Source: Candidatus Methylomirabilota bacterium (GTDB taxonomy: Bacteria > Methylomirabilota > Methylomirabilia > Rokubacteriales > CSP1-6). From it: a stretch of 35,852 nucleotides of DNA. This document shows positions 2,765 through 33,428 of the stretch, piece after piece. The notes under the pieces are model-generated. The model ran no database searches. It had not been told where the DNA came from and saw nothing but the letters and a program-made list of their open reading frames with translations. The stretch's first letter is position 1; each line of letters opens with the position of its first letter. The DNA is taken from NCBI GenBank assembly GCA_035635755.1, contig DASQAK010000264.1:1-35852 (forward strand), written 5' to 3'. A program made the translations under genes and the position numbers.

Positions 2765-3823
2765 TCAGCGCGCCCCCGTCACGTCGACACGGACGCGCGC
2801 GGGCGAGTCCTGCGTCACCGCGATGGTGACGTCGAGGAACTGCCGGATCACCTCGATATTGGTGGCGCTGTGGCTGGAAAGCGGCAGGGTGTGGAAGCTG
2901 CCCCCGCCCGCCAGGCTCAACGGCACGAGGAGCTGGTCGGCCAGATAGGCGCCCACGGGCACTTGGGCCGCCATGTACTCGCGCGCTTCCTTGACGACGC
3001 GCTCGGCCACGGCCTCCGCGCGGACGTCGACCTCTCCGAATCCCGTGAAGAGCTCGGTCACGTGCTCGCTCTCGATCTCGATGATGATGACATTCCCCGG
3101 TCCCGGGGACGCCTGCGGCAAGTCTGACTCTTCCGGATCCTCCGCCTTGAGCACGAGGACCTCGACTTCTTCCGGCGTCCAGCCCATCCTCCGGAGCACC
3201 ACCTTGATCTCGCGGTGGCCAATGTTGCCGGGGAGATTCGCCACGACGGCCTGGGCCCGGCGGCGCTTCGTCTCGCCTCGGTCGAGCAGATTCAGGGCCT
3301 CGAGGCGCCGGCACGGCGTGATCTTCACCTGGAACCTTCCGCCGCCCGCCGGATAGAATCCGTAGCGCTCCAGCTCGGCGTGCACGGGTGCGCCCATCCG
3401 CTCGAGCAGGGGCAGGAAAGCCCGAGCGAGAAAATCGAAGGGGGGCGCCCACGGATTGTGCGTCCCCCCCTCGAGGACGAGGGTGGATGAAGCACTCGCG
3501 GTCAGGAGCGGGGGCAGTATGGTCTGCAGCACGAGACTGGCGCTTCCCGCCGTTCCCACCGCGAACCGATAGGCGCCCGGGCGCACCGAGCGCGGACGGA
3601 ACACGACCTCCTGCGAGCCCAGCTCGGCGCCGTCGACGAGCGCGTTGCCTACCTCGGTGGCGGCGTTCACCGCCGTCAGGTGCTGACGGAGAAGCCCCGG
3701 CTTGGCCCGTCCCGCCCGGACCTTCTCCATGCGAAAGGGCGTTTCCGTGACGAGCGAGAGGGCGAGGGCGCTGCGGAGGATCTGCCCGCCGCCCTCGCCC
3801 CGCGATCCGTCGATCAGCAGCAT
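2765..3823 (-). CDS. rtcA: RNA 3'-terminal phosphate cyclase RtcA.
   Basis: 352 aa. N-terminus MLLIDGSRGEGGGQILRSALALS matches the RtcA hallmark (E. coli ALDGAQGEGGGQILRSAL). AAGGGG SD upstream. Starts 5 nt after the rtcB stop. Confidence 0.9.
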   Translation of the reverse strand: MLLIDGSRGEGGGQILRSALALSLVTETPFRMEKVRAGRAKPGLLRQHLTAVNAATEVGNALVDGAELGSQEVVFRPRSVRPGAYRFAVGTAGSASLVLQTILPPLLTASASSTLVLEGGTHNPWAPPFDFLARAFLPLLERMGAPVHAELERYGFYPAGGGRFQVKITPCRRLEALNLLDRGETKRRRAQAVVANLPGNIGHREIKVVLRRMGWTPEEVEVLVLKAEDPEESDLPQASPGPGNVIIIEIESEHVTELFTGFGEVDVRAEAVAERVVKEAREYMAAQVPVGAYLADQLLVPLSLAGGGSFHTLPLSSHSATNIEVIRQFLDVTIAVTQDSPARVRVDVTGAR

Positions 3824-3827
3824 GGCG

Positions 3828-5054
3828 TTACCCCTTGACGCAGACGACCTGACGAAGCGTGTGCACGATCTCCACGAGGTCCTTCTGTGCCTCCATCACC
3901 GCGTCGATGGACTTGTAGGCTCCCGGCGTTTCGTCGATGACATCCGGATCCTTCCGGCACTCGATGCCCGCCGTCGCCTCCACGTGATCGGCCACCGAGA
4001 AGCGTCGCCTGGCCTCGGTGCGCGACATGGCCCGCCCCGCCCCGTGGCTGCAGCTGTGGAAGCTTTCCGGGTTGCCCTTCCCGCGCACGATGTACGACCG
4101 CGCCCCCATGCTGCCCGGAACGATCCCGAGATCGCCCTCGCGGGCTCTCACCGCCCCCTTGCGCGTGAGGAGCACGTTCTTGCCGTAGTGAAACTCCCGC
4201 GCCACGTAGTTGTGGTGGCAGTTCACGGCCTCCACGCCCGCCGCGAAGGGCGGAAGGCCGGGCACGGAGCCCACGGCGGCCACGATGGCGCTCATCATCA
4301 GGCGGCGGTTGGTCATGGCGAAGCTCTGGGCCCACTCCACCGCCTCCACGTACTCCTTGAAGTGGTCGGTCCCCTCCGGCAGATATGCCAAGTCCTCGTC
4401 CGGCAGGTTGATCATCCACTTGCGCATGTCCTTCTTCGCCAGCTCGATGAAGTAGCTGCCGATCTTGTTTCCCACACCGCGCGACCCGCTGTGCAGGAGG
4501 AACCACACGCGCTCGCCCTCGTCGAGACAGACCTCGATGAAGTGATTGCCCGTGCCGAGGGTGCCCAGGTGGGTCTGATGGTTCGAGTGCCCCACCGCGG
4601 CGTGCTTGGCCACGATGGCGTCGAAGCGGGGCTTCAATCCGCTCCAGGCCTCCACGGCCGGCGGGGGCGGCGTGTGCCACGAGCCCTTGTCGCGGCCCCG
4701 GGGCGTACGGCCGTGCGGCACCGCGGCTTCGATGGCGGAGCGCACCCCGCGCAGGCTCTCGGGCAGATCGCTCGCCGTCAGGGTCGTCTGCATCGCCATC
4801 ATGCCGCAGCCGATGTCCACGCCCACCGCGGCCGGGATGATGGCGCCCACCGTGGGGATGACGCTGCCCACGGTGGCCCCGATGCCCCAATGCACATCGG
4901 GCATGGCCGCCACCCACTGATGGATGAACGGCATGCGCGCGACGTTGGCGAGCTGCTTGGCCGCGGCCTCCTCGATGGGGACGCCGCGCGTCCAGGCCTT
5001 GATGGGGACGCCGCCCTCGGGGTGAATCACGTCGTACGAGCGCTCACTGGACAT
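3828..5054 (-). CDS. rtcB: RNA-splicing ligase RtcB (3'-phosphate/5'-OH RNA ligase).
   Basis: MSSERSYDV...MPFIHQWVAAMPDVHWGIGATVGSVIPT...GVDIGCGM matches RtcB family signatures. GAGGGAGA SD precedes the internal ATG at 5054. Track ORF 3828..5069. Confidence 0.9.
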   Translation of the reverse strand: MSSERSYDVIHPEGGVPIKAWTRGVPIEEAAAKQLANVARMPFIHQWVAAMPDVHWGIGATVGSVIPTVGAIIPAAVGVDIGCGMMAMQTTLTASDLPESLRGVRSAIEAAVPHGRTPRGRDKGSWHTPPPPAVEAWSGLKPRFDAIVAKHAAVGHSNHQTHLGTLGTGNHFIEVCLDEGERVWFLLHSGSRGVGNKIGSYFIELAKKDMRKWMINLPDEDLAYLPEGTDHFKEYVEAVEWAQSFAMTNRRLMMSAIVAAVGSVPGLPPFAAGVEAVNCHHNYVAREFHYGKNVLLTRKGAVRAREGDLGIVPGSMGARSYIVRGKGNPESFHSCSHGAGRAMSRTEARRRFSVADHVEATAGIECRKDPDVIDETPGAYKSIDAVMEAQKDLVEIVHTLRQVVCVKG

Positions 5055-5859
5055 GGTCGTCTCCCTCAATGTGAGTCGGCTCCGGGCCGGCCGGCTCCCC
5101 TCGACGCCCTTGCGATTCGCGGTCGAGGGGCAGCACCGAGCCCGGCAGGCCGAGCACGATCGTATTCTTTCCGTTGGCGACCGCCTGCAGCGTCTTCATG
5201 GTCAGGAGCGCCGGATTCCCCTCGAGCATGCGGGCCGCGTTCGCGAGCTGGCGAAGCGAGGCCGTTTCCCCGCGCGCGCGCTCGAGCGCCGCCTCCGATG
5301 CCTTCCGGGCTTCCACGACCTGGGCGAAGATCTGCTTGAGCGGAGTCGGGAACGTCACGTCCTTGATCCCCACGGTTTCCAGCTCGAGCCCGAGGACGGC
5401 CGCCTTGGCCTCGAGTCCCGCGCGCAGCTGGGCGGCCAGCTCGCCCCGTCGCTCCAGCAGGGTCTCCACGGCCACCGTGGACACGAGGTCGCGCAGTACG
5501 AGCTGCGCCTCCAGGTACAGCGTGTCCGCGAACGACTGCACCAGCTCCGTCGCCACCTCGGGACGGACGACCCGGTAGCGCAGGGCGAGAGTGATCCGCA
5601 GGGCGACGTTGTCGGCCGACAGGATCTCCTGGCCCGCCACCACCGCGAGCCGCGAGCGGACATCGACGATCTGCACGGCGGCGAAGGGCCGCCACATCCA
5701 GTGCAGCCCCGCGTCGAGCGTCCGGGACAGCCGGCCCGCGCGATAGAGAAGCCCCTTCTGGTAATCGTAGATCACGATCCTGAGGATCACGAAGCGGTTC
5801 AGCACCAGGATCATGGGCACGCCTACGGCCACGATCGCCAGCATGTCGGTCAGTGTCAT
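5044..5859 (-). CDS. SPFH/band-7 (stomatin/prohibitin-like) membrane protein; first gene of the rtcBA operon.
   Basis: N-terminal TM helix (MTLTDMLAIVAVGVPMILVL) followed by an SPFH-like core and a coiled-coil tail. AGGAGA SD 6 nt upstream of ATG at 5859. Its 3' end overlaps the rtcB start by 11 nt. Confidence 0.75.
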   Translation of the reverse strand: MTLTDMLAIVAVGVPMILVLNRFVILRIVIYDYQKGLLYRAGRLSRTLDAGLHWMWRPFAAVQIVDVRSRLAVVAGQEILSADNVALRITLALRYRVVRPEVATELVQSFADTLYLEAQLVLRDLVSTVAVETLLERRGELAAQLRAGLEAKAAVLGLELETVGIKDVTFPTPLKQIFAQVVEARKASEAALERARGETASLRQLANAARMLEGNPALLTMKTLQAVANGKNTIVLGLPGSVLPLDRESQGRRGEPAGPEPTHIEGDDHVQ

Positions 5860-5974
5860 TGCGCATCTCCTCATTTGTAAGGACCCCTGCCCGACGGGCC
5901 CGCCTCTGGCGGGGAGATCGAAGATCTCCTCAAGGCCAGGGCAGCGGAGAGGCTTGCGCCTCCGATGCCCGCGG

Positions 5975-6150
5975 GGCAGGGGGATCGGGGATTCGAACCC
6001 CTTTTACGGAGGCGGCCGGGCCGAGCGTGGAACGTCGCCCGGACGAATCGCCGGACTCGCCACCGAGCCCGACCGCTGATTGCCCATGTTCCTTCCAGGG
6101 GGGTCACGGCCCCGCTTCGCCGTGACCCCCCACGCTCCTTGCCGACTAGG
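5975..6150 (-). ncRNA. Highly structured 5' leader of the sigma54-driven SPFH-rtcB-rtcA transcript, containing a tRNA T-arm mimic (GGGG-UUCGAAU-CCCC). Possible tRNA-like or Y-RNA-like regulatory RNA module.
   Basis: Minus-strand RNA carries a perfect 12-bp GC hairpin (6089-6122), a canonical T-stem-loop GGGGUUCGAAUCCCC (5987-6001) and a GGAGAUC-UUCG-GAUCUCC tetraloop hairpin (5923-5939). It sits between the predicted sigma54 promoter and the first CDS. Confidence 0.3.
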
Positions 6151-6159
6151 CATCCATAG

Positions 6160-6176
6160 AGCACGAGCCGTGCCTC
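6160..6176 (-). promoter_or_regulatory. Candidate sigma54 (-24/-12) promoter of the rtc operon.
   Basis: Minus-strand AGGCACGGCTCGTGCT versus consensus TGGCACG-N4-TTGCW. GG and GC have the correct 12-nt register. It lies between rtcR and the operon and is oriented toward SPFH-rtcBA. Confidence 0.5.
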
Positions 6177-6223
6177 CTGACCGTACCTGGAGGGTCGACT
6201 GGAACACTTTGGAAAGTAAGGAA

Positions 6224-6285
6224 TTGAGCTAGCTACCGGCTTCCTCTAGGTCCAGATCCTAGATGAGAAGCTAATGAGCTAGCGG
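6224..6285. promoter_or_regulatory. AT-rich divergent control region with repeated palindromic TGAGCTAGC boxes (candidate RtcR upstream activating sites) and the rtcR promoter.
   Basis: Two copies of TGAGCTAGC (6225-6233, 6275-6283) lie 50 bp apart. They contain the AGCTAGCT/GCTAGC palindromes. CTAGG-N7-CCTAG lies between them. Local GC is ~50% versus ~70% background. Confidence 0.3.
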
Positions 6286-6297
6286 ATAATATCGGGC

Positions 6298-7884
6298 ATG
6301 CGAACGGTGGTGATCGGATTCCTTGGAACGACTCTCGACCGCGGTGGCCAGAACCGCTGGGATCCGTGGCGACCCTCGGTGGATCTGTGCCGTCACGAGG
6401 ACCTGGTGGTCGGGCGCTTCGAACTGCTGAGCCAGGTCCGGTCCCGGGGGCTCGCCAACGAAGTCACCGCCGACATCCTGTCGGTCTCGCCGGAGACCGA
6501 GGTTCGAACCCACGACCTCGAATTCAGGGACCCCTGGGACTTCGAGGAAGTGTACGGGGCGCTCCTCGATTTCGCCCGGGCCTATCCCTTCAAACCGGAC
6601 GAAGAGAGCCACCTCGTCCACATGACCACGGGCACGCATGTCGCGCAGATCTGTCTCTTCCTGCTTGCCGAGTCACGAGAAATTCCCGGGCGGCTCATCC
6701 AGACGTCTCCGCCCCCCCGGCGCCGCGGCGTGGAGCCGGGCACGTACGCGATCATCGACCTCGACCTGTCCAAGTACGACCGGCTGGCCTCGCGATTCCA
6801 GGCGCGGCATCGCGAGGACCTCTCGTATCTCAAGTCCGGCATCGACACTCGCAACGCCGGGTTCAACAGGCTCATCGAGCGGATCGAGCAGGTGGCCATC
6901 GCCTCACAGTCGCCCCTGCTCCTCATGGGCCCGACGGGCGCGGGCAAGGCGCAGCTCGCGCGACGGATCTACGAGCTGAGGAAGGCCCGCCGCCAGGTGG
7001 AAGGCGCCTTCGTTGAGGTCAACTGCGCCACCTTGCGCGGGGATGCCGCGATGTCCGCCCTCTTCGGGCACGTCAAGGGCGCGTTCACGGGCGCCCTGCA
7101 GCCTCGCCCCGGTCTCTTGCGCACCGCCGATAAGGGCATCCTCTTCCTGGAAGAGATCGCAGAGCTGGGCTCCGACGAGCAGGCCATGCTCCTGCACGCG
7201 CTGGAGGAGAAGCGATTCCTGCCCATGGGCACGGACCGCGAGGTGCACAGCGACTTTCAGCTGATCGCAGGAACGAACCGGGATCTGGGCGAGGCCGTCC
7301 GGGCTGGCCGTTTTCGTGACGACCTGTTCTCCCGCATCAACCTGTGGACGTTTCGCCTGCCCGGCTTGCAGGAGCGCGTCGAGGACCTCGAGCCGAATCT
7401 CGAGTACGAGCTCGACCAGTGGGCCGTCCAGCAGGGCCGCCGCATCACCTTCAACAAGGAGGCCCGCGAGGCCTTCCTGCGCTTCGCGACCTCGCCCGAC
7501 GCTCTGTGGACGGCGAACTTCCGCGACTTCAACGCGGCCATCGTGCGGATGGCGACGCTGGCCGCGGGCGGGCGCATCACCACCGAGATCGTGCGGGACG
7601 AGATCGCCCGGCTCAAGGCTCTCTGGGAACCCGCGAGCGCCGGGACGACCGATGACGCGCTGAGCCGCTTCGTCGATGCCGCCAAGCTGGCGGAGCTCGA
7701 TCACTTCGACAGGGTCCAGCTCGCCGAGGTCCTGCGCGTGTGCGCGCGGTCGCGAAGCCTTTCCGATGCCGGTCGTGCCCTCTTCTCCGTGTCCCGGCAC
7801 CGCCGCTCGACCACCAACGACGCCGACCGGCTGCGCAAGTATCTGGCCCGGTTCGGGCTGGCCTGGCAGGATACTCAAGCCTGA
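6298..7884 (+). CDS. rtcR: Sigma54-dependent transcriptional activator RtcR (CARF-like N-domain + AAA+ with GAFTGA + C-terminal HTH region).
   Basis: 528 aa. Walker A GPTGAGKAQLARRIY. GAFTGA motif (GHVKGAFTGALQ). N-terminus MRTVVIGFLGTTLDRGGQNRWDPWRP resembles E. coli RtcR. Divergent from rtcBA. Confidence 0.9.
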   Translation: MRTVVIGFLGTTLDRGGQNRWDPWRPSVDLCRHEDLVVGRFELLSQVRSRGLANEVTADILSVSPETEVRTHDLEFRDPWDFEEVYGALLDFARAYPFKPDEESHLVHMTTGTHVAQICLFLLAESREIPGRLIQTSPPPRRRGVEPGTYAIIDLDLSKYDRLASRFQARHREDLSYLKSGIDTRNAGFNRLIERIEQVAIASQSPLLLMGPTGAGKAQLARRIYELRKARRQVEGAFVEVNCATLRGDAAMSALFGHVKGAFTGALQPRPGLLRTADKGILFLEEIAELGSDEQAMLLHALEEKRFLPMGTDREVHSDFQLIAGTNRDLGEAVRAGRFRDDLFSRINLWTFRLPGLQERVEDLEPNLEYELDQWAVQQGRRITFNKEAREAFLRFATSPDALWTANFRDFNAAIVRMATLAAGGRITTEIVRDEIARLKALWEPASAGTTDDALSRFVDAAKLAELDHFDRVQLAEVLRVCARSRSLSDAGRALFSVSRHRRSTTNDADRLRKYLARFGLAWQDTQA

Positions 7885-7885
7885 G

Positions 7886-8308
7886 CTACAGGAAGGCTCT
7901 CTCCAGTGAAGTCACGAACTGAACGCCCGGAACAATCTTCTGACTCAGACGTTCGTCGTTCGTGATGAAGAGATCAACTCGGGCTTGGGAGGCACAGGCG
8001 AGCTGGATGGCGTCAGGCGGGCGGATGGCACGATCAATTCGGATCGCCGCGTAGACCCCTGCTGCGGATCGATCGAACGGAACAATCGTTGCACCGGTGA
8101 CGATGGCCTGCTCGTATGTCTCACGGAGTGTGTCATCTTGCATCTCGATCGGTCTAACGAGTACCTCCCCCAGTGTCAGGGTCGAGGTATAGAGTTGGTC
8201 TCCACGGACGAGCATGCGCTCGCGAAGCCGCGTCACGCGGTCTGCACGTTCTCCTGAGCCCTCGATGAGATAGATGAAGAGGTTTGTATCCCAGAAGACG
8301 CGGCTCAT
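7886..8308 (-). CDS. PIN-domain ribonuclease toxin (VapC-like).
   Basis: 140 aa. Conserved acidic residues in VFWDTN, GEV, PPDAIQ and FITND contexts. ATGA start/stop overlap with the upstream gene. Locus GC ~50%. Confidence 0.85.
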   Translation of the reverse strand: MSRVFWDTNLFIYLIEGSGERADRVTRLRERMLVRGDQLYTSTLTLGEVLVRPIEMQDDTLRETYEQAIVTGATIVPFDRSAAGVYAAIRIDRAIRPPDAIQLACASQARVDLFITNDERLSQKIVPGVQFVTSLERAFL

Positions 8309-8799
8309 ACCCAGCGTTCCCGGAGGCGGAGCACATAGTCGTCCGGATCTTCACCGGCCCAGATGTGCTTCCCCACGCCTCGCAACTGCAAAATCGGGTC
8401 GGCCGTTCCATGCTCCGTCGCCTCCGGGGCGTACTCGGAGCGGTACCAGTCGAGGAGGTGCCGGTACTCCCTTGGCAGATCTTCGATCTCGGGAACAATC
8501 TTGGCGCCGCGACGGTCCGGGTGATAGGGATCGCCTGGGCGGAAGAGTCGCCTCGTCTTGCCGATCGCGTACAGCATGCGATACCGGCCCGGGTCCGGTG
8601 GCTTGTTCGCCACGCAGTGTTGCACCGCATGCTGATAGACCGCAGGTCTAACCTTGTCGGGGGCCGCCTCCTCTGCCGCGCGCCTCAGGATCTCCCTTGG
8701 AGTGAAGGTAGTGCGCTCGGGATGCTCTCGATGGAGAAGCGCCGTTGCGACCCAGACCTCGTCTGCGGCTTTCATGCTGGTCTTGCGTAGCCCTTTCAC
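8305..8799 (-). CDS. Hypothetical 164-aa protein translationally coupled upstream of the PIN toxin; putative atypical antitoxin or partner.
   Basis: Track ORF 8305..8805. GGAGG sits 5 nt before the GTG at 8799. It overlaps the VapC start by 4 nt. No recognisable RHH/AbrB/Phd motif could be seen by eye. Confidence 0.5.
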   Translation of the reverse strand: MKGLRKTSMKAADEVWVATALLHREHPERTTFTPREILRRAAEEAAPDKVRPAVYQHAVQHCVANKPPDPGRYRMLYAIGKTRRLFRPGDPYHPDRRGAKIVPEIEDLPREYRHLLDWYRSEYAPEATEHGTADPILQLRGVGKHIWAGEDPDDYVLRLRERWV

Positions 8800-8823
8800 T
8801 AGCACCTCCCTGTCTAATAAGAT

Positions 8824-8854
8824 ACATATACTACAATGTAATATTTGTTGTCAA
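8824..8854 (-). promoter_or_regulatory. Sigma70-like promoter (TTGACA-N17/18-GTATAT/TATATG) with TACATTGTA palindrome; likely promoter/operator of the toxin-partner operon.
   Basis: Minus-strand reading is cTTGACAacaaatattacattgtaGTATATg in an AT-rich stretch immediately upstream of the 8799 start. Confidence 0.4.
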
Positions 8855-9049
8855 GTAGAGCGTCGCCCAACCGGCTACAGGACGGTCTTTTCCGTGAGAT
8901 GATCCGGCCCGAGCATGGATCGGAATGGATGGGACCATCATCGCGGGCGACGATGAATCCGAGCGGCAGGCCGCGCTCGCCTTCGACCTGCTGCGTCTCG
9001 AGCTCGGCTTTCTCGAAGACCCGTTCCCGATCTATCATCGGCAGCGGCG

Positions 9050-10168
9050 ATGGGATCCGGTGCACCGCTGCCCCGACGGCCTTATTTCCTGACGCGCTAC
9101 GATGATGTCGCCGCTGTCTATCGTGACCATGCGCGGCTCTCCTCCGACAAGAAGGTCGAGTTCAAGCCGAAGTTCGGTGACGCTCCGCTCTTCGAGCACC
9201 ACACGGCGAGCCTGGTCTTCCGCGACCCGCCCGATCACACGCGTCTCCGCCGCCTCTTTGCCGCCGCCTTCACTCCCAAGGCCCTGGCCGCGCTACGGCC
9301 CCGCGTCGTCCGCTTGGTCGATGGCATGCTCGACCGCGCGCAGAGCCAAGGCGGGATGGACCTCATCGCCGACTATGCCTTCGCCCTGCCCGTCGAGCTG
9401 ATCGGCGACATGCTGGGGGTGCCGCGGGCCGACCGCCCGCGACTGCGCGACTGGTCGCTGGCCATCCTGGGCGCGCTGGAGCCCGTGCCCGGAACTGAGC
9501 GCCTCGACAAGGGCAATCGCGCCGTGGAGGAGTTCAAGGCCTTCCTGCGCGCGCTGTGCGAGGACAGGCGCCGCCATCCGCCCCTCGATGACGACGACGA
9601 GGTGCTGAGCAAGCTCATGGCCGCCGAGGACGAGCAGGGAGCCTTGAGCGAGATCGAGCTCTTGCATCAGTGCGTCTTTCTCTTGAACGCGGGGCACGAG
9701 ACGACGACCAATCTGATCGGCAATGGGGGGCATGCGCTGCTCGAACATCCCGGCAAGCTCCGGCGGCTGCAAGACGATCCATCGCTGATCGAGGCGGGCG
9801 TGGAGGAGTTCCTGCGCTACGAGAGCTCTAACCAGCTGGGCAATCGCCGCGCCCTCGCCGACGTCGAGATCGGGGGCGTGGCCATGCCGGCCGGCACCCT
9901 CATCACGCTCTGCATCGGCGCGGCCAACCGGGACCCCGCCCAGTTCCCGGAGCCGGACCGCCTCGACATCACGCGCACGCCCAACCGGCATCTCGCCTTC
10001 GCGACGGGCATCCATGCCTGCGCGGGGATGTGGCTGGCACGCATGGAGGGGCAGGTCGCCATCGGGCGGCTGGTGCGCCGCTTTCCGAAGATTCGGTCGG
10101 CGGGGCCCGTGGTGCGTGGAGGGCGCGCCAGGTTTCGCGGGCTGGCGCAGTTCCCGGTGGGCGTGTAG
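9050..10168 (+). CDS. Cytochrome P450. The N-terminal ~55 codons lie in another frame at 8925..9092, indicating an apparent 1-nt frameshift near 9083-9088 (pseudogene or sequencing error).
   Basis: P450 Cys-ligand loop FATGIHACAGMWLA. ETTT I-helix motif AGHETTTN. ExxR motif. Upstream frame encodes MDGTIIAGDDESERQAALAFDLLRLELGFLEDPFPIYHRQRRWDPVHRCPDGLIS*, the expected P450 N-terminus. Confidence 0.7.
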   Translation: MGSGAPLPRRPYFLTRYDDVAAVYRDHARLSSDKKVEFKPKFGDAPLFEHHTASLVFRDPPDHTRLRRLFAAAFTPKALAALRPRVVRLVDGMLDRAQSQGGMDLIADYAFALPVELIGDMLGVPRADRPRLRDWSLAILGALEPVPGTERLDKGNRAVEEFKAFLRALCEDRRRHPPLDDDDEVLSKLMAAEDEQGALSEIELLHQCVFLLNAGHETTTNLIGNGGHALLEHPGKLRRLQDDPSLIEAGVEEFLRYESSNQLGNRRALADVEIGGVAMPAGTLITLCIGAANRDPAQFPEPDRLDITRTPNRHLAFATGIHACAGMWLARMEGQVAIGRLVRRFPKIRSAGPVVRGGRARFRGLAQFPVGV

Positions 10169-10191
10169 GCTTCCTCCAGGAGGGCACAGCC

Positions 10192-11504: not shown

Positions 11505-12365
11505 ATGGCCTGCGGCGAAGCCCGCGCTGTCGAGGCCAACGGGCTTCGCCTCAGGCTCTGGAAGTGGGGAGGCGGTGGCCCGCCCGCGCTCCTCCTTCAC
11601 TCGCTGGCCGCTCACAGTCACTGGTGGGACTGGGCGGCCCCCCTCCTCGCCACCCGCTTCACGGCGATCGCGCTCGACCTTCGCGGCCACGGCGAAAGCG
11701 GCTGGGCCGAACCGGCCGCGTATCATGCCTCCGACTATGCTGGCGACATCGTGGCCGTGCTCGACTCTCTGGGCTGGCAGGCGCCGCTCGTCATCGGGCA
11801 CTCGCTGGGTGGCTATGTCGGCGCCTGGCTGGCCGCTCATCACGCCGACCGGGTCGGCGCTCTCGTCATCGCCGACACCTTGATCCAGTGGTCGGAGGAG
11901 GAGACGGCCTGGGTGCTCGGACAGTCGGAGCGGCCTGGTCCCCGGTTCGCCGATCCTGGTGAAGCGGGTGGTCGCTTCCGACTGTCGCCCCCCGAGACCG
12001 CGGCCCCCGCGGAGTGCTTGCGTCACCTCGGTGAGGCCGCCGTCGTCGAGCGCGCGGCCGGGGTCTGGCACTACGCCTTCGACCGCAGGGTCTTTGCCCA
12101 GGCAAGACCCGAGGACTGGTCCATCCTGGCCAAGATCGCCTGTCCCACGCTGGTCGTGCGCGGCGAAGGCAGCCGCATGATGGACCGCGCCGCCATGCTG
12201 CACGTCGCCACCACCGTGTCGCGCGGCCAGTTCGCCGAGCTCAAGGGCGCCTGGCACCATCTCGTTCTCGACGATCCCGCCCGCTTCGTCTCCCTCGTGA
12301 CAGACTGGTTCGAGCGGCTCAATCCGGCCGCCGCCGCCCGAGGCGTACGTGGCAGTTCGAGCTGA
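11505..12365 (+). CDS. Alpha/beta hydrolase fold protein.
   Basis: HSLGG nucleophile elbow (VIGHSLGGYVGA) and HGESG motif. Begins 3 nt after the preceding stop. The last ~7 codons run into repeat element R1. Confidence 0.8.
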   Translation: MACGEARAVEANGLRLRLWKWGGGGPPALLLHSLAAHSHWWDWAAPLLATRFTAIALDLRGHGESGWAEPAAYHASDYAGDIVAVLDSLGWQAPLVIGHSLGGYVGAWLAAHHADRVGALVIADTLIQWSEEETAWVLGQSERPGPRFADPGEAGGRFRLSPPETAAPAECLRHLGEAAVVERAAGVWHYAFDRRVFAQARPEDWSILAKIACPTLVVRGEGSRMMDRAAMLHVATTVSRGQFAELKGAWHHLVLDDPARFVSLVTDWFERLNPAAAARGVRGSSS

Positions 12366-12498
12366 GGGGCGCAGCCGCGAGGCGAGGGCTGAGTGGAACG
12401 TACGTTGAGGGTTGCCGGCTCGCTCGCAACGTGGCAGTTCGGGCTGAGCGGCTCGGCCGCGAAGCGAGGGCAGAATCGATCTGGCGAAGCAAATTGGC
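12340..12498 (+). repeat. Composite REP/MITE-like structured repeat, copy R1. Two forward 'units' (GTTCG[A/G]GCTGAG...GAGGCGAGGGCTGAGT) plus tail GGCGAAGCAAATTGGCCCAGTGCC.
   Basis: Shares 30-40-nt modules with copies at 15021-15290, 26271-26350, 30421-30685 and 33300-33415. Internal palindrome ACGTTGAGGG...CTCGCAACGT. Confidence 0.75.
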
Positions 12499-12525
12499 CC
12501 AGTGCCGCTCGAAGAGGAGGTCGAC

Positions 12526-13575
12526 GTGAATCCTGCCATGACCACGCGCGACGCGAACCTGCCCGCGGAATATTCGGCAGGGCTCGATAGGCTCTCCCTC
12601 GCCCCGTTGTGGACCGCGCTCCACGTCCTGCTCCCGCAGGAGCGCGTGACGGAGGCGGTACCCCACCGCTGGCGCTGGGCCGAGATGCGCGAGCCGCTTC
12701 TCGAGGCCGCGCGCCTCGTGCCGCTCGATCAGGCCGAGCGTCGCGTCCTCGTGCTTCGCAATCCCGGGCTCGGAGGCGCCTACGCTGTGACGGCCACGCT
12801 CTTCGCGGGGCTGCAGATCATCCTGCCGGGGGAAGCGGCCCCGAGCCATCACCATACCCCGGCGGCCCTCCGGCTCATCGTCGAGGGGCGGGGGGCTTTC
12901 ACCACCGTGGACGGCATCAAGTGCGCGATGGAGCCGGGCGACCTCATCATCACACCGCCCATGCGCTGGCACGATCATGGTCACGAGGGAAGCGAGCCCG
13001 TGATCTGGCTCGACGGTCTCGACATCCCCCTGGTGAGGAGTTTCGAGGCGGCCTGGGCATCCAAGATGCGCCCGGCCGTCGTCCCCGCCACGGCGACCGA
13101 TTCCTCGCAGGACGAGTTCACCGCCGCGGGCGTGGTGCCGCGCGCCTCGCGCTATGAAGACACGGGCTACCCGCAGGTGCGCTGGCCGTGGACGACCGTG
13201 CGGCGGGCGCTCGAGGCCATGGCGGCCGCCGCTCCGGCTGATCAGCCCGTCGTGCTCCGCTACGTGAATCCGCAGACCGGCAGCTTCCCGCTCCGCACCA
13301 TCGGCTGCGAGGCGCAGTGGCTGCGGCCGGGCGAAGCGACCCGCGCCGAGCGCCGCACGGCCAGCGGGGTCTTCCACGTGATCGAAGGACAGGGGGAGAG
13401 TCGCATCGGCGACGAGGTCCTCACCTGGGAGCGGGGCGACTGCGTGGTGGCGCCGCCGTGGCACTGGGTCCAGCACAAGAACCTCTCGCGATCGGCGCCG
13501 GCCAGTCTTTTCCACTTCAACGACGAGCCCGCCCTCCGGTCACTGGGCCTCTGGCTGGAGGAGGTCCGCGCGTGA
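12526..13575 (+). CDS. Gentisate 1,2-dioxygenase-like bicupin dioxygenase.
   Basis: PSHHHTPAALRLIVEGRGAFTTVDG...EPGDLIITPPMRWHDHGHEGSEPVIWLDGLDIPL matches the GDO cupin metal-binding signature. GAGGAGG SD 5 nt before the GTG at 12526. Track ORF 12502..13575. Confidence 0.8.
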   Translation: MNPAMTTRDANLPAEYSAGLDRLSLAPLWTALHVLLPQERVTEAVPHRWRWAEMREPLLEAARLVPLDQAERRVLVLRNPGLGGAYAVTATLFAGLQIILPGEAAPSHHHTPAALRLIVEGRGAFTTVDGIKCAMEPGDLIITPPMRWHDHGHEGSEPVIWLDGLDIPLVRSFEAAWASKMRPAVVPATATDSSQDEFTAAGVVPRASRYEDTGYPQVRWPWTTVRRALEAMAAAAPADQPVVLRYVNPQTGSFPLRTIGCEAQWLRPGEATRAERRTASGVFHVIEGQGESRIGDEVLTWERGDCVVAPPWHWVQHKNLSRSAPASLFHFNDEPALRSLGLWLEEVRA

Positions 13576-13586
13576 AGTAGAGCGCG

Positions 13587-14009
13587 TCAGGTGTCCTTGG
13601 TGAACGCCCAGGTGCCGCCGCCCAGGAAGAACTGGGCGATGGTGGCGATGAGGACCACCAGGGCGTACTCGTAGCCGACCACATGCGGCTTGCCTCGGGA
13701 GGCTTCCGTCATGACGGCGCGGAGGAAGAAGCCGTCATTGAGCTGGAGGACGAGGACGACCACGAGCATGACGGGGACATTGACGAGGGTCGCCCAGCGC
13801 GTGAACAAGCCCAGGACGAGCATGATCCCGCCCATGAGCTGCGCGGTGAGCAGATAGAAGACGAGGGCATCGGGAAAGGGCAGCCCGAGGTCCTTGGTGA
13901 TCATGGTGGCCATGGCATCCGGCGTCACGTCGAAGTACGCGTGGTACGCGTGGGCGATGTAGACGACGCCGAGCATGAGGCGAAGGATCGTGGCGCCGAA
14001 CGGGCTCAA
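13587..14009 (-). CDS. DoxX-family membrane protein.
   Basis: 140 aa with four hydrophobic helices; typical DoxX size and topology. Confidence 0.75.
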   Translation of the reverse strand: MSPFGATILRLMLGVVYIAHAYHAYFDVTPDAMATMITKDLGLPFPDALVFYLLTAQLMGGIMLVLGLFTRWATLVNVPVMLVVVLVLQLNDGFFLRAVMTEASRGKPHVVGYEYALVVLIATIAQFFLGGGTWAFTKDT

Positions 14010-14063
14010 GATCGTCCCACGCTGAAATATTACAGCCCGGTCATCCAGCCCCCGGCGAGAATT

Positions 14064-15017
14064 CTAGCCTGGGATATCCCGCGCCGTGGGTAGCCCGGGC
14101 AGGGGCGTGGCGCACAGGACGGCCCGCGCGATGGCCGTGGCCACCGCCTCGGCCGCGGCGGCGCCCACGCCGGCCAGGTCCGCCGGCTGCTTCCCTATGG
14201 CGAGGCAGAAGAGACAGTCGCCGTCCGTGTCGAGATGCGGGGGAGAGAGCGCCCGCCCGAATCCCGCGAGGCCGAGCCGCGCCACGCGCGCGGCCTCCGC
14301 CTTGCTCAAGCCGGCCGTGGTCGCGACCACGCCGATGGTGGTATGGGCGGGGCGGAAGCGCGGCGGACTCGCCCCCGCCGCCAGCGCGGCCGCGGTATCC
14401 ACGAGCTGCCGACCATCGGGCGCGTCGCGGGCGCCGGCGAGGAGCCGCCCCGTGACGGGATCCCGCACGTCGCCCACGGCATTCACGACCATGAGCGCGG
14501 CCGTGACGATTCCGTCCCGGTCCACGCGGGCCACGCCCAGTCCGCCGCGCATGGCGCGCTCGATGCCGTAGAGCTTGCCGACGGTGGCGCCCGTGCCCGC
14601 GCCCACGCTGCCTTCGGCCACGGGGCTTGCGCTCGCCGCCGCGGCGGCGGCATGGCCCATGGCCCGGTCGGGTCTCGCGCGATGGTCGCCCACGGAGAGA
14701 TCGAAGATGATGGCGCCCGCCACGTGCGGGACGACGGTGCGGGACACGGGAAAGCCCCGCCCGCGCTCCTCGAGCCACTGCATCACGCCCCAGATCGCCT
14801 CGAGGCCGTAGGCGCTGCCGCCGGCCAACACGACCGCGTCCACCGTCGGCGCGAGGTGACGCGGGTCGAGGAACTCGAGCCCGTGCACGGCGGCCGCCCG
14901 TCCGGCGATCTCGAGCGCGCCCGTGGCGGGGCGCTCGGGCATGATGACGGTGCACCCGGTGAGCCCGCGGTTGTCGGTGACATGGCCCACGCTCAGGCCG
15001 GGAATCACGCTGGCCAC
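14064..15017 (-). CDS. DmpA/S58 (P1) family aminopeptidase-like protein (start uncertain; 15008-15074 all possible).
   Basis: VGHVTD near the N-terminus plus Gly-rich GAGTGAT motifs of the P1/DmpA family. The track start at 15074 is a TTG that lies inside repeat R2. Confidence 0.7.
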   Translation of the reverse strand: MASVIPGLSVGHVTDNRGLTGCTVIMPERPATGALEIAGRAAAVHGLEFLDPRHLAPTVDAVVLAGGSAYGLEAIWGVMQWLEERGRGFPVSRTVVPHVAGAIIFDLSVGDHRARPDRAMGHAAAAAASASPVAEGSVGAGTGATVGKLYGIERAMRGGLGVARVDRDGIVTAALMVVNAVGDVRDPVTGRLLAGARDAPDGRQLVDTAAALAAGASPPRFRPAHTTIGVVATTAGLSKAEAARVARLGLAGFGRALSPPHLDTDGDCLFCLAIGKQPADLAGVGAAAAEAVATAIARAVLCATPLPGLPTARDIPG

Positions 15018-15020
15018 TCT

Positions 15021-15290
15021 AGCAAATTCTGGGTACCAGCCCGCGCGGCTAAGCCGTTGTGGGTACTGGGCCAAGTTGCGAGCCAGATCAACTCAGCCCT
15101 CGCCTCGGGCTGCGCCCTCAGCTCGAACCGCCACGCCCGAGGGAGCCAGCAATGCGAGGCGTACGTGGTGTAAGTTGAGCGTTGCTGGCGACCGAGAACG
15201 TGGGCGTTCGAGCTGAGCAGCGCAGCTGCGAGGCGAGGGCTGAGTCAATGTGGCGAAGCAAATTGGCCCAGTACCAAATTCTGGCGGGCA
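15021..15290. repeat. Composite structured repeat, copy R2; MITE-like with terminal inverted repeats. Order: reverse tail, reverse unit, GCGAGGCGTACGTGG / GTTGAGCGTTGC spacer, forward unit, forward tail.
   Basis: Ends CAAATTCTGGGTACCAG (15024-15040) and CCAGTACCAAATTCTGG (15270-15286) are inverted. Units at 15087-15125 (reverse) and 15209-15247 (forward). Confidence 0.75.
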
Positions 15291-15319
15291 TTGACCCCAC
15301 GGTGCTACGCTCGGACCAC

Positions 15320-15655
15320 ATGCGCAGGGGAGACGCCCCGGACGATGAGCAGGCCGACCATCGGGAGCGCCACCGGCAGCCGCGCCGGCCGTGGTTTCTC
15401 ATCGCCGCCTGCCTCACCCTGGTCGTGCTCTCCTGGGTGCTGTGGGTCAAGTGGACCGGCTATCAGAAAGAAGCGCGCCGGCTCCAGCGGGAGTTGACGC
15501 GCGTTTACAAAGAGGCCGAAGATCTGCGCATGCAGGCCACCCTCGGCCAAGAGCGTATCGCGCGGCTGGAGCGGGAGCTGCGCGCGCTCAGAGCCGAGAG
15601 CCAGGCCCGGCCCGCGGAAGACAAGAAGGGTGGGCGGTCCGTGCCCAAGCGGTAG
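15320..15655 (+). CDS. Small membrane-anchored coiled-coil protein (hypothetical).
   Basis: 111 aa. One TM helix (WFLIAACLTLVVLSWVLWV) then a heptad-rich segment. High GC3. The upstream part of track ORF 15182..15655 is repeat-derived. Confidence 0.45.
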   Translation: MRRGDAPDDEQADHRERHRQPRRPWFLIAACLTLVVLSWVLWVKWTGYQKEARRLQRELTRVYKEAEDLRMQATLGQERIARLERELRALRAESQARPAEDKKGGRSVPKR

Positions 15656-25659: not shown

Positions 25660-26352
25660 GTGACGTATCGCGGTCGGCTCGTCCTCAAGGCCGCCGTCTG
25701 GGTGGCCAGCCTCTGGCCGCTCGGCGTGCTGGTGCGCGGCTGGCTCGCGGACGATCTCACCGCCAATCCCATCGATTACATCACGCGCACCCTGGGGCTC
25801 ACCGCCCTCGTCCTGCTTCTCGCGAGCCTCGGCATGACTCCGCTGCGCATTCTGTTCCGCTGGTCCTGGCCCATCCAGCTCCGGCGACTCCTCGGCCTCC
25901 TGGCTTTCTTCTACATCTGTGTGCACTTCTCCGTCTGGATAGGTCTCGACCATTTCTTCGCCTGGAAACGCATGGGACAGGACGTCCTCAAGCGGCCCTT
26001 CATCACGGTGGGCGTGCTCGCCCTCGCGCTGCTCACTCCGCTCGCCATCACCTCGACGCAGGGCATGATCAAGCGCCTGGGGGGCGCCCGATGGCGGCTG
26101 CTCCACCGCCTCGTCTATGTGGCGGGCGTGCTGGGGGTGCTCCACTTCCTGTGGCTGGCCAAGAAGGGTCGTACCACGCCCTACTACTACGCCATCGTGC
26201 TCGGGGTCCTGCTGGCCGTGCGCCTCTGGGACTGGGGACGGGGGCGGGTGATCTCGAGAGCCCCTAAAAACGAACCCTCTCCCCCACTGGGGGAGAGGGC
26301 CGCGGTTCGAGCTGAGACGCTCGCTTCGAGCGACGAGGCGAGGGCTGAGTAA
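25660..26352 (+). CDS. msrQ: MsrQ (YedZ) haem-binding membrane subunit. The C-terminal ~25 codons are encoded by repeat copy R3.
   Basis: Six-TM ferric-reductase-like protein with conserved His residues immediately downstream of msrP. GTG start 25660. The tail ...APKNEPSPPLGERAAVRAETLASSDEARAE overlaps the repeat. Confidence 0.8.
   Translation: MTYRGRLVLKAAVWVASLWPLGVLVRGWLADDLTANPIDYITRTLGLTALVLLLASLGMTPLRILFRWSWPIQLRRLLGLLAFFYICVHFSVWIGLDHFFAWKRMGQDVLKRPFITVGVLALALLTPLAITSTQGMIKRLGGARWRLLHRLVYVAGVLGVLHFLWLAKKGRTTPYYYAIVLGVLLAVRLWDWGRGRVISRAPKNEPSPPLGERAAVRAETLASSDEARAE
26271..26350 (+). repeat. Short variant of the structured repeat, copy R3. GC hairpin head CCCTCTCCCCC-N5-GGGGAGAGGG plus forward unit.
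   Basis: Near-identical head and unit to the copy at 33333-33415. Lies at the msrQ 3' end, before the convergent nfu gene. Confidence 0.7.
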
Positions 26353-26366
26353 AAGAGCCTCAGGCG

Positions 26367-26762: not shown

Positions 26763-27560
26763 ATGGACTACGCCGACTACCAGCACCTGCTCTTCGACCG
26801 CCGTCCGAACGGCGTCGTGCTCATCACCATCAATCGCCCCGAGGTGATGAACGCCACCAATGCGCGCCTGCACTGGGAGCTGACCCAGGTGTGGTTGACA
26901 ATCGACGCCGACCCGGCGGCGCGGGTGGCCCTCGTGACGGGGGCGGGGCGCGCCTTCTCGGCGGGCGGGGACATCTCGCTCGTGGAGGAGATGACGACGA
27001 ATCACGAGGCGGTGGCCCGCACGTTGCGCGAGGCCGCCGACCTCGTCTACAACATGATCAATCTCGACAAGCCGGTGATCTCCGCCATCAATGGGGTGGC
27101 CGTCGGCGCCGGCCTCGTGGTCGCCCTCCTCGCCGATGTCAGCATCATCTCCGAGACGGCCCGATTCACCGACGGCCACACGCGCCTCGGGGTGGCCGCG
27201 GGCGATCACGCCGCCATCATCTGGCCTCTCCTCTGCGGCATGGCCAAGGCCAAGTACTATCTCCTCACGAGCGACTTCATCGACGGCCGGGAGGCCGAAC
27301 GCATAGGGCTCGTCAGCCGCTGCGTCCCCGCGGACAAGGTCATGGAGACGGCGCTGGGCGTGGCCGAGGCGCTGGCCGGCGGAAGCCAGCACGCGATCCG
27401 GTTCACCAAGCGCGCGCTCAACAACTGGCTGCGCCAGGCCGGACCCATCTTCGACCAGTCCCTGGCCCTCGAGATGCTGTGCTTCGGCTTCGAGGATGTG
27501 AAGGAAGGCGCCCGCGCCATACGCGAGAAGCGCGCCCCGTCCTTTCCTTCGGCGCGGTGA
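26763..27560 (+). CDS. Enoyl-CoA hydratase/isomerase (crotonase) family protein.
   Basis: VALVTGAGRAFSAGGDI and INGVAVGAGLVVALLADV oxyanion-hole motifs. GGAGG SD 9 nt upstream. It is the 3' part of track ORF 26406..27560. Confidence 0.85.
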   Translation: MDYADYQHLLFDRRPNGVVLITINRPEVMNATNARLHWELTQVWLTIDADPAARVALVTGAGRAFSAGGDISLVEEMTTNHEAVARTLREAADLVYNMINLDKPVISAINGVAVGAGLVVALLADVSIISETARFTDGHTRLGVAAGDHAAIIWPLLCGMAKAKYYLLTSDFIDGREAERIGLVSRCVPADKVMETALGVAEALAGGSQHAIRFTKRALNNWLRQAGPIFDQSLALEMLCFGFEDVKEGARAIREKRAPSFPSAR

Positions 27561-29134: not shown

Positions 29135-29258
29135 GGCGGCTCAAAAAGGTCCAGATGCGAGGCGTCGCCCGAAGGCCGCAGGCGAGGCGTAGTCTCTCTA
29201 CGTTGAGCCTGCGGTCGAGGGCGACAACGAAGCAGATGGGCCTTTTTCAGCCGCCTCA
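29132..29258. repeat. 127-bp inverted-repeat element between convergent genes. 21-nt arms TGAGGCGGCTCAAAAAGGTCC / GGGCCTTTTTCAGCCGCCTCA each include the TGA stop codon of the flanking gene.
   Basis: Arms at 29132-29152 and 29238-29258 (2 mismatches). The interior shares GCGAGGCGTAG and TACGTTGAGC modules with the main repeat family. Confidence 0.6.
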
Positions 29259-30420: not shown

Positions 30421-30685
30421 GCGAGGTACTGGGCCAATTTGCTTCGCCATATCAACTCAGCTCTCGCCTCGCGGCGGGGCCGCTCAGCTCGAAGTGCCAC
30501 GTTCTCGGTCGCCCGCAACGCTCAACGTACGATCCACTCAGCCCTCGCCTCGGGCTTCGCCCTCAGCTCGAAGGGTCACGTACGCCTCGCGTTGCAGGCT
30601 CCCTCGGGCGTGGCCGTTCGAGCGGAGGGGCGGAGCCCCGAGGCGAGGGCTGAGTTAGTCTGGCTCGCAACTTGACCCAGTACCG
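30421..30685. repeat. Largest composite copy (R4) of the structured repeat family: reverse tail, two reverse units, spacers, forward unit, forward tail. Lies in the divergent promoter region.
   Basis: Reverse units at 30453-30493 and 30536-30575. Forward unit at 30616-30654. Tails at 30425-30452 and 30655-30685. Spacer modules CACGTACGCCTCGC and GCAACGCTCAACGTAC are reverse complements of those in R1/R2. Confidence 0.75.
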
Positions 30686-31651: not shown

Positions 31652-31717
31652 CCGGGATCGACGATGCGGTGCTCAGGGTGTCTGCGAACGGCGTGAAACC
31701 AAGGAGGCCTACCTGAA

Positions 31718-33299: not shown

Positions 33300-33415
33300 C
33301 CCCGGCCCTCTCCTTGGAAGCGAGAGGGAGACTTTTGAACCCTCTCCCCAGGAGGGGGAGAGGGCCGCAGTTCGAGCTGAGCGGCAGAGCCGCGAGGCGA
33401 GAGCTGAGTTAGTGA
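33300..33415 (+). repeat. Short-variant structured repeat copy R5. Two successive GC hairpins (CCCTCTCC...GAGAGGGAG, then CCCTCTCCCC-AGGA-GGGGGAGAGGG) plus forward unit.
   Basis: The head and unit at 33333-33415 are near-identical to 26271-26350. Lies at the 3' end of the CDO gene and immediately upstream of the next gene's SD. Confidence 0.7.
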
Positions 33416-33428
33416 GGGGGAGTCCTTG

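Follow-up and report, generated by a model that had tools for sequence, protein, structure and literature searches.

Repeats between the genes of the window

The stretch of DNA analysed here, called the window throughout, covers positions 1 to 35,852 of contig DASQAK010000264.1 (NCBI GenBank assembly GCA_035635755.1), comes from a Candidatus Methylomirabilota bacterium of the Rokubacteriales, and has a G+C content of ~69%. The genes that neighbour the repeats described below are ordinary ones: hydrolase, cupin dioxygenase-like, S58 peptidase, ferric-reductase-like, NifU-like, tetratricopeptide-repeat (TPR), isochorismatase, VKOR, rhodanese, CDO-like and MR/MLE. Between these genes, or at their ends, a 40-nt structured unit recurs in nine copies that form five clusters (A–E), and a related element, T3, lies at ~29 kb. 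An earlier note on this DNA had proposed a novel composite structured repeat of the REP (repetitive extragenic palindromic) or MITE (miniature inverted-repeat transposable element) type. Taxonomic range, Rfam, fold and polymorphism show this proposal to be largely right, and we read the repeats as probable non-autonomous mobile elements.

The five intergenic regions and the relative at ~29 kb were read directly. The repeats were also recovered by a mechanical repeat search of the window, in which the modules correspond to families D2, D3, D5, D7, D12 and D17 and to the long inverted pairs I1–I7. All modules that the earlier note had listed were found at the places it gave, or a few bases away. 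Units occur in both orientations, as it had said. On the plus strand they lie at 12355-12394 and 12437-12476 (cluster A, units 1 and 2, the latter degenerate), 15206-15245 (B), 26305-26350 (C, with a long inner hairpin), 30616-30655 (D) and 33370-33409 (E); on the minus strand they lie at 15091-15128 (B), 30455-30494 and 30536-30573 (both D). In the window, the 16-mer GAGGCGAGGGCTGAGT has 12 matches at three or fewer mismatches, while 1.1 are expected and 0 of 100 shuffles reach 12. A profile hidden Markov model found exactly nine units. A covariance model run with filters off found the same nine at 54-74 bits (E <= 1e-12), with the next match at 12 bits. The 25-nt tail TGGCGAAGCAAATTGGCCCAGTACC occurs three times in the window, against 0 expected, and a variant of the tail, CTGGCTCGCAACTTGRCCCAGTACC, is found at 15062 (-) and 30659 (+).

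The sites of the clusters stand as first described, with corrected boundaries. Cluster A is a half element between the hydrolase and cupin genes (12339-12506, plus strand), made up in order of CGAGGCGTACGTGG, unit 1, a spacer ACGTACGTTGAGGGTTGC..GCAACGTGGCA, the degenerate unit 2 and the tail TGGCGAAGCAAATTGGCCCAGTGCC (12482-12506). Cluster B is a 243-nt insertion (15033-15275) that forms one long hairpin on folding. It begins with an outer degenerate end, GGTACCAG.., and continues through the inner end GGTACTGGGCCAAGTTGCGAGCC, the minus unit, a 77-nt spacer and the plus unit to the tail ..GGCCCAGTACC. On both sides of it stands the target-site duplication AAATTCTGG (15024-15032 on the left, 15276-15284 on the right), of 8-9 bp, the boundary being ambiguous by one G. 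Cluster C (26272-26353, plus strand), flanked by the ferric-reductase-like and NifU-like genes, which converge on it, consists of a terminator-like hairpin, GAACCCTCTCCCCCACTGGGGGAGAGGG (26272-26301), CCGCG, and the unit with the long inner hairpin. Cluster D is a 260-nt composite (30425-30684) between the divergent isochorismatase and VKOR genes. It contains three units inside a carrier with the inverted ends GGTACTGGGCCAA.../...TTGACCCAGTACC; by carrier we mean an element of ~127 nt that folds into a rod and has imperfect inverted ends starting GGTACTG. Cluster E (33306-33423, plus strand), immediately before the MR/MLE start codon (ATG), runs from hairpin 1 (33306-33328) through AGACTTTTGAA, hairpin 2 (33340-33364), CCGCA and the unit to TAGTGAGGGGGAG.

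The placement of all copies between genes or at gene ends holds as well: B, D and E lie wholly between genes, while A and C overlap the last codons of the upstream open reading frames (ORFs). Both B and D separate divergent start codons, A and E stand between co-directional genes, and C between convergent ones. The sequence first taken for a degenerate relative at 29132-29258 is indeed related, but it belongs to a separate sister family, T3. The window copy of T3 occupies 29135-29249 (115 nt) just after the stop of the TPR gene and contains no 40-nt unit; other copies of T3 host one.

Settings in which the unit occurs

For comparison, 80 orthologous loci of relatives were collected by a metagenome scan with the window VKOR protein (30779-31414), and four more were obtained through a cupin protein search; loci are cited below by their L numbers. 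The window is syntenic with contig QHSC01000089.1 (Rokubacteria bin AR4), at 94-95% identity. Four settings of the unit recur, namely the carrier, the foot of a terminator-like hairpin, tandem arrays and T3, and solitary units also occur. The nesting of units in a carrier, the good folding of one strand only, the target-site duplication at one copy and the identity of the host as a Rokubacterium are features beyond those in the earlier note.

Carrier-linked units are flanked by ACGTGGCA...TNGATC, and the carrier ends next to them are GGTACTGGGCCAAGTTGCGAGCC and GGCGAAGCAAATTGGCCCAGTACC. In nine copies, the carrier ends read GGTACTGGGCCAA... and ...TTGGCCCAGTACC, which fit GGnnnTG. Composites of ~215-220 nt in at least six fetched relatives hold one unit per arm in inverted orientation. 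This two-unit architecture recurs in L042, L047, L048, L058, L082 and L153, and cluster B, in which the inverted units stand 77 nt apart, is of the same design. In cluster D, the extra units occupy the carrier rod at its apical loop and at either side of one internal loop. Carriers, composites and T3, 115-260 nt long, have no ORF of their own.

In the hairpin-linked setting (C and E), a CCCTCTCCCC-N-GGGGAGAGGG hairpin has the unit at its 3' foot, with CCGCR before the unit and (T)GAGGGGG after it. The same hairpin with GGGTGAGGGGG and without a unit is present in L153 and L117 at the position orthologous to 26272-26360, and the hairpin alone is also present in L088 at the position orthologous to 33306-33423. 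The hairpin seems to be a separate, widespread terminator-like repeat to which units attach. A terminator-like T-run is found solely with this hairpin, at 26273-26301 on the minus strand. When intrinsic terminators (a G+C-rich stem-loop followed by a T run) were sought, none of the nine units or the composites was flagged; the units have no U-tract. Tandem arrays of units with a period of 44-48 nt occur in L043, L005 and L056. As to a replication-strand bias, 89 of 144 units, which are non-independent, share an orientation relative to GC skew, and the skew itself is too weak (mean |skew| 0.019) for such a bias to be read from it.

The T3 family, with ~26 copies or fragments in the fetched loci, has the core TCAAAAAGGTCCAGATGCGAGGCG...GCGAGGCGTAGTCTCTCTACGTTGAGC...CAACGAAGCAGATGGGCCTTTTTCA. 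It has neither GGTACTG-type ends nor a direct target duplication, and copies that contain a unit are found in L016, L026, L031, L062 and L118. The window copy sits within the loop of a small hairpin that follows the stop of the TPR gene. In nine copies (window, L001, L036, L040, L050, L054, L095, L106 and L107), the 6-12 nt outside the core are specific to the copy yet complementary between its two sides. To judge from this pattern, the window T3 resembles a core to which an inverted duplicate of the target loop has been added.

Fold of the unit and of the carrier

The unit reads GTTC-GA-GCT-GA-G-NNNN-loop-NNNN-C-GA-GGC-GA-GRGC, followed by TGAG. The variable middle, which had been put at 12-14 nt, is real, but its length ranges from 10 to 18 nt and is usually 12 nt: 67 of 95 copies have 12 nt and 17 have 18 nt. 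The unit folds into a rod of three short helices with two symmetric GA/GA internal loops, in C-GA-G or U-GA-G context, and several G-U pairs. The same rod was obtained from single-sequence folding and from RNAalifold on 79 distinct copies. In the gapless alignment of units, 93.6% of the cells are paired, against 88.3% in shuffles and 32-54% when the partners are slid. Double-change cells number 41, against 11.5 in shuffles. The inner stem covaries, the pairs that vary being just the two inner ones (CG/GC; GC/CG/AU), and the covariation check suggested for conserved structure comes out positive.

The two strands of the unit differ in stability. The G-rich strand is the more stable one in 79/79 units, with RNA and DNA parameters alike: -19.6 kcal/mol versus -10.0 kcal/mol for the C-rich complement with RNA parameters, and -7.4 versus -5.6 kcal/mol with DNA parameters. 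The complement would carry C.A and UC/UC mismatches. One strand of the carrier also folds far better than the other (-74 versus -49 kcal/mol). The central stem of the carrier, CGAGGCGTAC/GTACGTTGAG, pairs via a C-GA-G/U-GA-G loop, and CGAG-type mismatches are common to carrier and unit. The large hairpins that had been predicted for the clusters are borne out by in silico folding of B (-162 kcal/mol, z -14.5) and D (z -9.2). A rod that forms on one strand with repeated CGAG tandem G.A loops is a testable clue to any enzyme that may recognise it.

Gain and loss between close relatives

Every window cluster is missing or different in some relative that is 94-98% identical, with the flanking genes intact, and relatives also hold extra copies. 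Presence or absence between strains, another check proposed at the outset, is therefore abundant. At site A, L161 (94.6% identical) has 53 nt of unrelated spacer instead of the cluster. At site B, the 243 nt of the window are a clean insertion: L161, L163 and L164 are empty and have a single AAATTCTGG, while the window has AAATTCTGG on both sides. Cluster C is present in the window, AR4, L089 and L090 and absent from L082; L153 and L117 have the hairpin only, and L118 has an inverted unit pair. The T3 element at 29135-29249 is absent from AR4, L082, L083, L088, L089 and L090.

Site D presents a graded series. L081, L083, L090 and AR4 are empty here, L084 and L089 have a 127-nt carrier with no unit, L082 has 216 nt with two units, and the window has 260 nt with three. 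L081, empty at this site, is 97.7% identical to the window overall and 99.7% identical in the adjacent gene. The series of empty, carrier-only, two-unit and three-unit alleles offers a starting point for studying how nested repeats grow. At site E, L081 lacks 31 nt of the cluster, a difference that falls between two GAGAGGG repeats; L088 has hairpin 1 only, and L082, L083, L089 and L090 have a 26-nt spacer. The gene spacing of L084 is the same as that of the relatives with the 26-nt spacer.

At two further sites, the window is empty. A solitary unit of 49-50 nt, on the minus strand, lies at 31665/31666 in L081, L083, L084, L089, L090 and AR4. The site is empty, with the same junction, also in L082 and in the more distant L088. 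The immediate flanks of the window match those of the filled L081, and a comparison of these alleles suggests either seamless loss from the window or import of an empty allele. At ~23990, L153 has a 218-nt composite. Changes at the level of the unit, solitary or nested, show no target duplication. Between strains 94-98% identical, the elements thus lengthen intergenic regions, contribute stop codons, take the place of a promoter-like stretch and increase the distance between divergent starts, and such strain-level intergenic changes are therefore a likely source of regulatory variation.

Taxonomic range and density

A one-genome-per-species scan with the pattern TTCGAGCTGAG-N10-20-GAGGCGAGRGCTGAG returned at least 80 stretches. 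Nearly all of them are in metagenome-assembled genomes (MAGs) named Candidatus Rokubacteria/Rokuibacteriota or Methylomirabilota, with at least eight assemblies among these matches; the modules thus recur in relatives, as the earlier note had expected. The unit sequence is nearly invariant across species, and 164 units were counted in ~1.1 Mb of related DNA. No viral contig matched the unit pattern. As to a known annotated family, an Rfam search of the whole window was negative at gathering score, and so was one of 12300-15320 at E <= 1. A match in an Aquiluna locus (L029) was rejected as a chance match: its G+C content is 53%, it forms no hairpin and it lies inside a gene.

At the VKOR locus, unit density per 10 kb is 2.5 in the window, 1.2 in relatives with at least 85% VKOR protein identity and 0.13 in relatives with 59-79%. 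In related MAG contigs, which were selected by one copy, a further cluster is met every 24-78 kb. This suggests clusters on the order of a hundred or more per genome, and the estimate is a floor value because repeats break assemblies. The family is abundant enough to do so, and the hundreds of copies per genome proposed in the earlier note are compatible with these data.

Some contigs that carry the repeats are labelled otherwise: L055 as Actinobacteria, L040 as Opitutaceae, L065 as Thermoanaerobaculia and L036 (CAVVDB010000003.1) as Chloroflexia. L055 is 92% identical to a Rokubacteria AR4 contig over 907 nt. L036, L040 and L065 resemble Rokubacteria DNA only through the repeats that they carry, and L036 has both the unit and T3. 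A fifth contig, L164 (DATJPC010000061.1), labelled Bathyarchaeia, is syntenic with the window and repeat-poor, with a single unit match. These five contigs probably reflect mis-binning or mislabelling. The repeats can be used as a lineage marker for mislabelled contigs.

Neighbouring genes

Two genes end within or just after a repeat. The hydrolase ORF (11505-12365) takes its TGA stop from within unit 1, and the ferric-reductase-like ORF (25660-26352) continues for 27 codons across the hairpin and the unit and stops at a TAA immediately behind the unit. On these predicted reading frames, the repeats supply C-terminal tails and stop codons for both ORFs. Upstream of the cupin gene, L161 (~2470-2537) and L163 (~7561-7625) have a promoter-like TTGACG-17-TAAGCT/TATGCT, read by eye, where the window, at the orthologous positions 12337-12494, has cluster A instead. 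The insertion of cluster A may have removed the cupin gene's own putative promoter. Effects on the host would be secondary: longer intergenic regions, occasional stop codons, displaced promoters and, if the repeats are transcribed, stable rods in untranslated regions.

Two further observations concern the genes of the window. The ~7.4 kb at 2765-10170 is missing from L162, L163 and L164, in which 2094-2760 directly abuts 10177. The region contains RtcA, RtcB, a Band7 protein, RtcR, a PIN-domain protein preceded by a small ORF, and a P450-like ORF. Its G+C content dips to 0.61 at 8-9 kb, and it looks like an inserted islet with an RNA-repair operon and a toxin-antitoxin-like pair. The TPR_12/TPR_10 gene (26891-29134) has, at 27834-28826, at least seven tandem repeats of 126 nt (42 residues), an ordinary TPR periodicity.

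A probable mobile element in two layers

With a probability of about 0.7, we conclude that the repeats are non-autonomous miniature mobile elements of Rokubacteriales (Methylomirabilota), built in two layers. Mobile elements are preferred to a conserved regulator because copies come and go between near-identical strains. In the first layer, the carriers (the 127-nt GGTACTG element and the ~115-nt T3) would behave like MITEs. For the GGTACTG carrier, the GGnnnTG ends and the 8-9 bp target duplication at one copy make mobilisation in trans by an IS1/IS6-type DDE transposase probable. The ends of IS1 are GGnnnTG and its direct repeats 8-9 bp; IS6/IS26 has GGnnnTG ends as IS1 does, and 8-bp direct repeats (PMC10425158 Table 8; PMC6807381). 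In the second layer, the 40-nt unit is gained and lost independently, in the loops of carriers, at the feet of hairpins, beside other units or alone. The unit may move by a strand-specific, hairpin-recognising HUH-like route (IS200/IS605, or RAYT, the REP-associated tyrosine transposase), or it may arise through hairpin-driven replication errors, because unit-level changes leave no duplication, the sites are in or beside hairpins and the fold is strand-specific. We infer that an enzyme moves the repeats, which enzyme this would be and any effect on expression, and our confidence in any particular enzyme is much lower than in non-autonomous mobility.

Several points weigh against this conclusion. 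The target duplication is seen in 1 of ~9 composite copies (B) and is not detectable at the eight others, D included. Several insertions replace 3-8 bases and are not clean additions, so exchange between copies probably contributes, and some of the variation could be due to recombination or gene conversion among them. Approximate queries run against the window and ~1.2 Mb of related DNA, which represents a small fraction of each genome, detected no transposase. For HUH enzymes, tblastn of the window and 80 loci with approximate IS200 TnpA and E. coli RayT queries gave nothing below E = 0.4; for DDE enzymes, approximate IS1 InsA/InsB and IS26 Tnp queries gave nothing credible. A weak DDE match in L050 was rejected, as it is antisense to a real gene. 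Between unit pairs ~1 kb apart, the genes encode ordinary enzymes and no transposase. As for the fold, the invariant outer helices fit the rod, but covariation says nothing on them and backs only two pairs, because the outer stems never vary; moreover, apparent compensation in palindromic DNA can arise without selection on function. Finally, an RNA-level role is left some room by the orientation of units relative to genes, which was scored in flank windows with crude gene calls: 21 of 29 terminator-linked units lie downstream of a same-sense gene.

A stricter form of mobility is that of REP sequences and REPINs (REP doublets forming hairpins). The unit would be a REP, the inverted pairs REPINs, and all would have been made by one vertically inherited, single-copy RAYT, a domesticated transposase of the IS200-like HUH type, acting on the folded G-rich strand. 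Much of the anatomy agrees with the REPIN/RAYT definition (10.1101/2021.07.10.451892): the 40-nt unit, an imperfect palindrome found strictly outside genes, persists across several Rokubacteria species; inverted pairs 77 nt apart form one hairpin; only one strand folds well; units are gained without target duplication; and 31665/6 is seamlessly empty in a genome with flanks that match a filled relative. However, the 8-9 bp direct duplication at locus B is not a product of HUH single-strand transposition, and the 1.2 Mb contained no RAYT or IS200-like ORF, which is a weak test. REPINs are quoted as turning over at ~1e-8 per generation, and RAYT-linked REPINs are described for Gammaproteobacteria and Neisseria (10.1101/2021.07.10.451892), while the turnover between the 94-98% identical genomes here is far faster. 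We therefore regard this stricter form as unlikely. We are equally doubtful about a second variant, in which the 40-nt CGAG-rod unit would be a mobile module in its own right that homes into the loops or feet of other hairpins (terminators, carrier rods, other units), on one strand, without duplication and with seamless loss, driven by an enzyme so far not associated with repeats of this type. T3, with outer arms like an inverted target copy, might insert in the same way. If true, the homing unit would represent a 'hairpin-in-hairpin' class of nested element.

Selection by the host on a structured element is less probable still. The rods would then serve as terminators or insulators, as stabilisers of mRNA 3' ends, or as sites for RNase III or a binding protein, and they would recur because they are needed by many genes. 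The folds are indeed very stable and strand-specific, the inner stem covaries, the unit hardly varies among species, an associated hairpin resembles a terminator, and the terminator-linked units have the sense bias given above. Nonetheless, each window copy is missing or different in a 94-98% identical genome with intact flanking genes, and copies are ~20x fewer than in the window in orthologous regions of relatives with 59-79% protein identity. Carrier-linked units, found in either orientation, have no bias in sense; B and D separate divergent starts and are not at 3' ends; and the absence of a U-tract from the units and of an Rfam match from the window points the same way. Because every copy is dispensable in a close relative, both orientations occur and the terminator T-run belongs only to a separate hairpin, a conserved role in termination, insulation or mRNA stability is not supported as the reason for the existence of the repeats. 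Among the roles that the earlier note had offered, these are thus set aside in this sense, and the non-autonomous mobile element is favoured.

The weakest contender, local slippage, hairpin template switching and gene conversion among copies with no mobility and no dedicated enzyme, fits the tandem arrays of 44-48 nt period, the 31-nt difference between GAGAGGG repeats in the window and L081, the replacements of a few bases and the T3 ends that resemble an inverted target copy, but it is made highly improbable by copies that have clean boundaries and occupy many unrelated loci without homology in the flanks, by the direct target duplication at one copy and by a 216-218-nt architecture conserved at unrelated sites in different genomes. 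Integron attC sites (both orientations, no cassette arrays seen), uptake sequences (the repeats greatly exceed them in length and lie strictly between genes), a coding repeat (no consistent frame, intergenic), CRISPR (no spacers) and known ribozymes (no Rfam match) were rejected.

Comparison with known systems

The proposed mobile elements in two layers have partial counterparts in several known systems. Like REP sequences, BIMEs (bacterial interspersed mosaic elements) and REPINs of Enterobacteria and Pseudomonas, the units are short extragenic imperfect palindromes, present in many copies and common to related species. Their clusters are likewise mosaics of orientations and short motifs, with inverted pairs that form one long hairpin and no duplication at the level of the unit. 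Unlike those repeats, with which they have no sequence similarity, the Rokubacteria units have a stem with repeated CGAG tandem G.A loops and a varying, covarying inner stem, and they are nested in a carrier that has its own inverted ends. The single 8-9 bp duplication, the fast turnover and a host in an uncultured phylum outside Proteobacteria also set them apart, and no RAYT was found in the sampled DNA.

The carrier, in turn, resembles MITEs of IS1 and IS6/IS26. It is non-coding, 127-260 nt long with its contents, bounded by imperfect terminal inverted repeats that start from GGTACTG, and present or absent between strains, and the copy at B has the 8-9 bp duplication. The truncated, one-ended copy A beside a small deletion likewise resembles the adjacent deletions of the IS1 type. 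It differs in that no parent insertion sequence with the carrier ends was found, that most copies have no duplication, that the sister family T3 has different ends and no direct duplication, and that the carrier hosts a separately varying hairpin module. With IS200/IS605 and its miniature derivatives, the repeats have in common strand-specific imperfect hairpins, no duplication, apparently seamless loss and insertion by or in hairpins. In contrast to that group, no TnpA/TnpB gene was seen here and no short conserved target motif was discernible; the resemblance is drawn from anatomy.

Correia elements (Neisseria), ERIC, BOX/RUP (Streptococcus) and SMAG (Stenotrophomonas) resemble the present family in being small, structured and intergenic, in varying between strains and in sometimes being fused to the ends of genes. 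They are unrelated to it in sequence and have defining ends and duplications of their own; that of Correia elements is a TA duplication. We know of no nested unit-in-carrier design in any of these four groups.

Our literature search yielded no paper on the unit sequence, on Rokubacteria repeats or on RAYT/REPIN in Rokubacteria, which makes this the first description that we know of for a group of uncultured soil bacteria known only from metagenome bins. In conclusion, the family works like REP/REPIN and IS-derived MITEs, yet it cannot be filed under either, because the defining enzyme was not found. Its unusual features are the nested unit-in-carrier design and the rod, formed on one strand and held by repeated CGAG tandem G.A loops.

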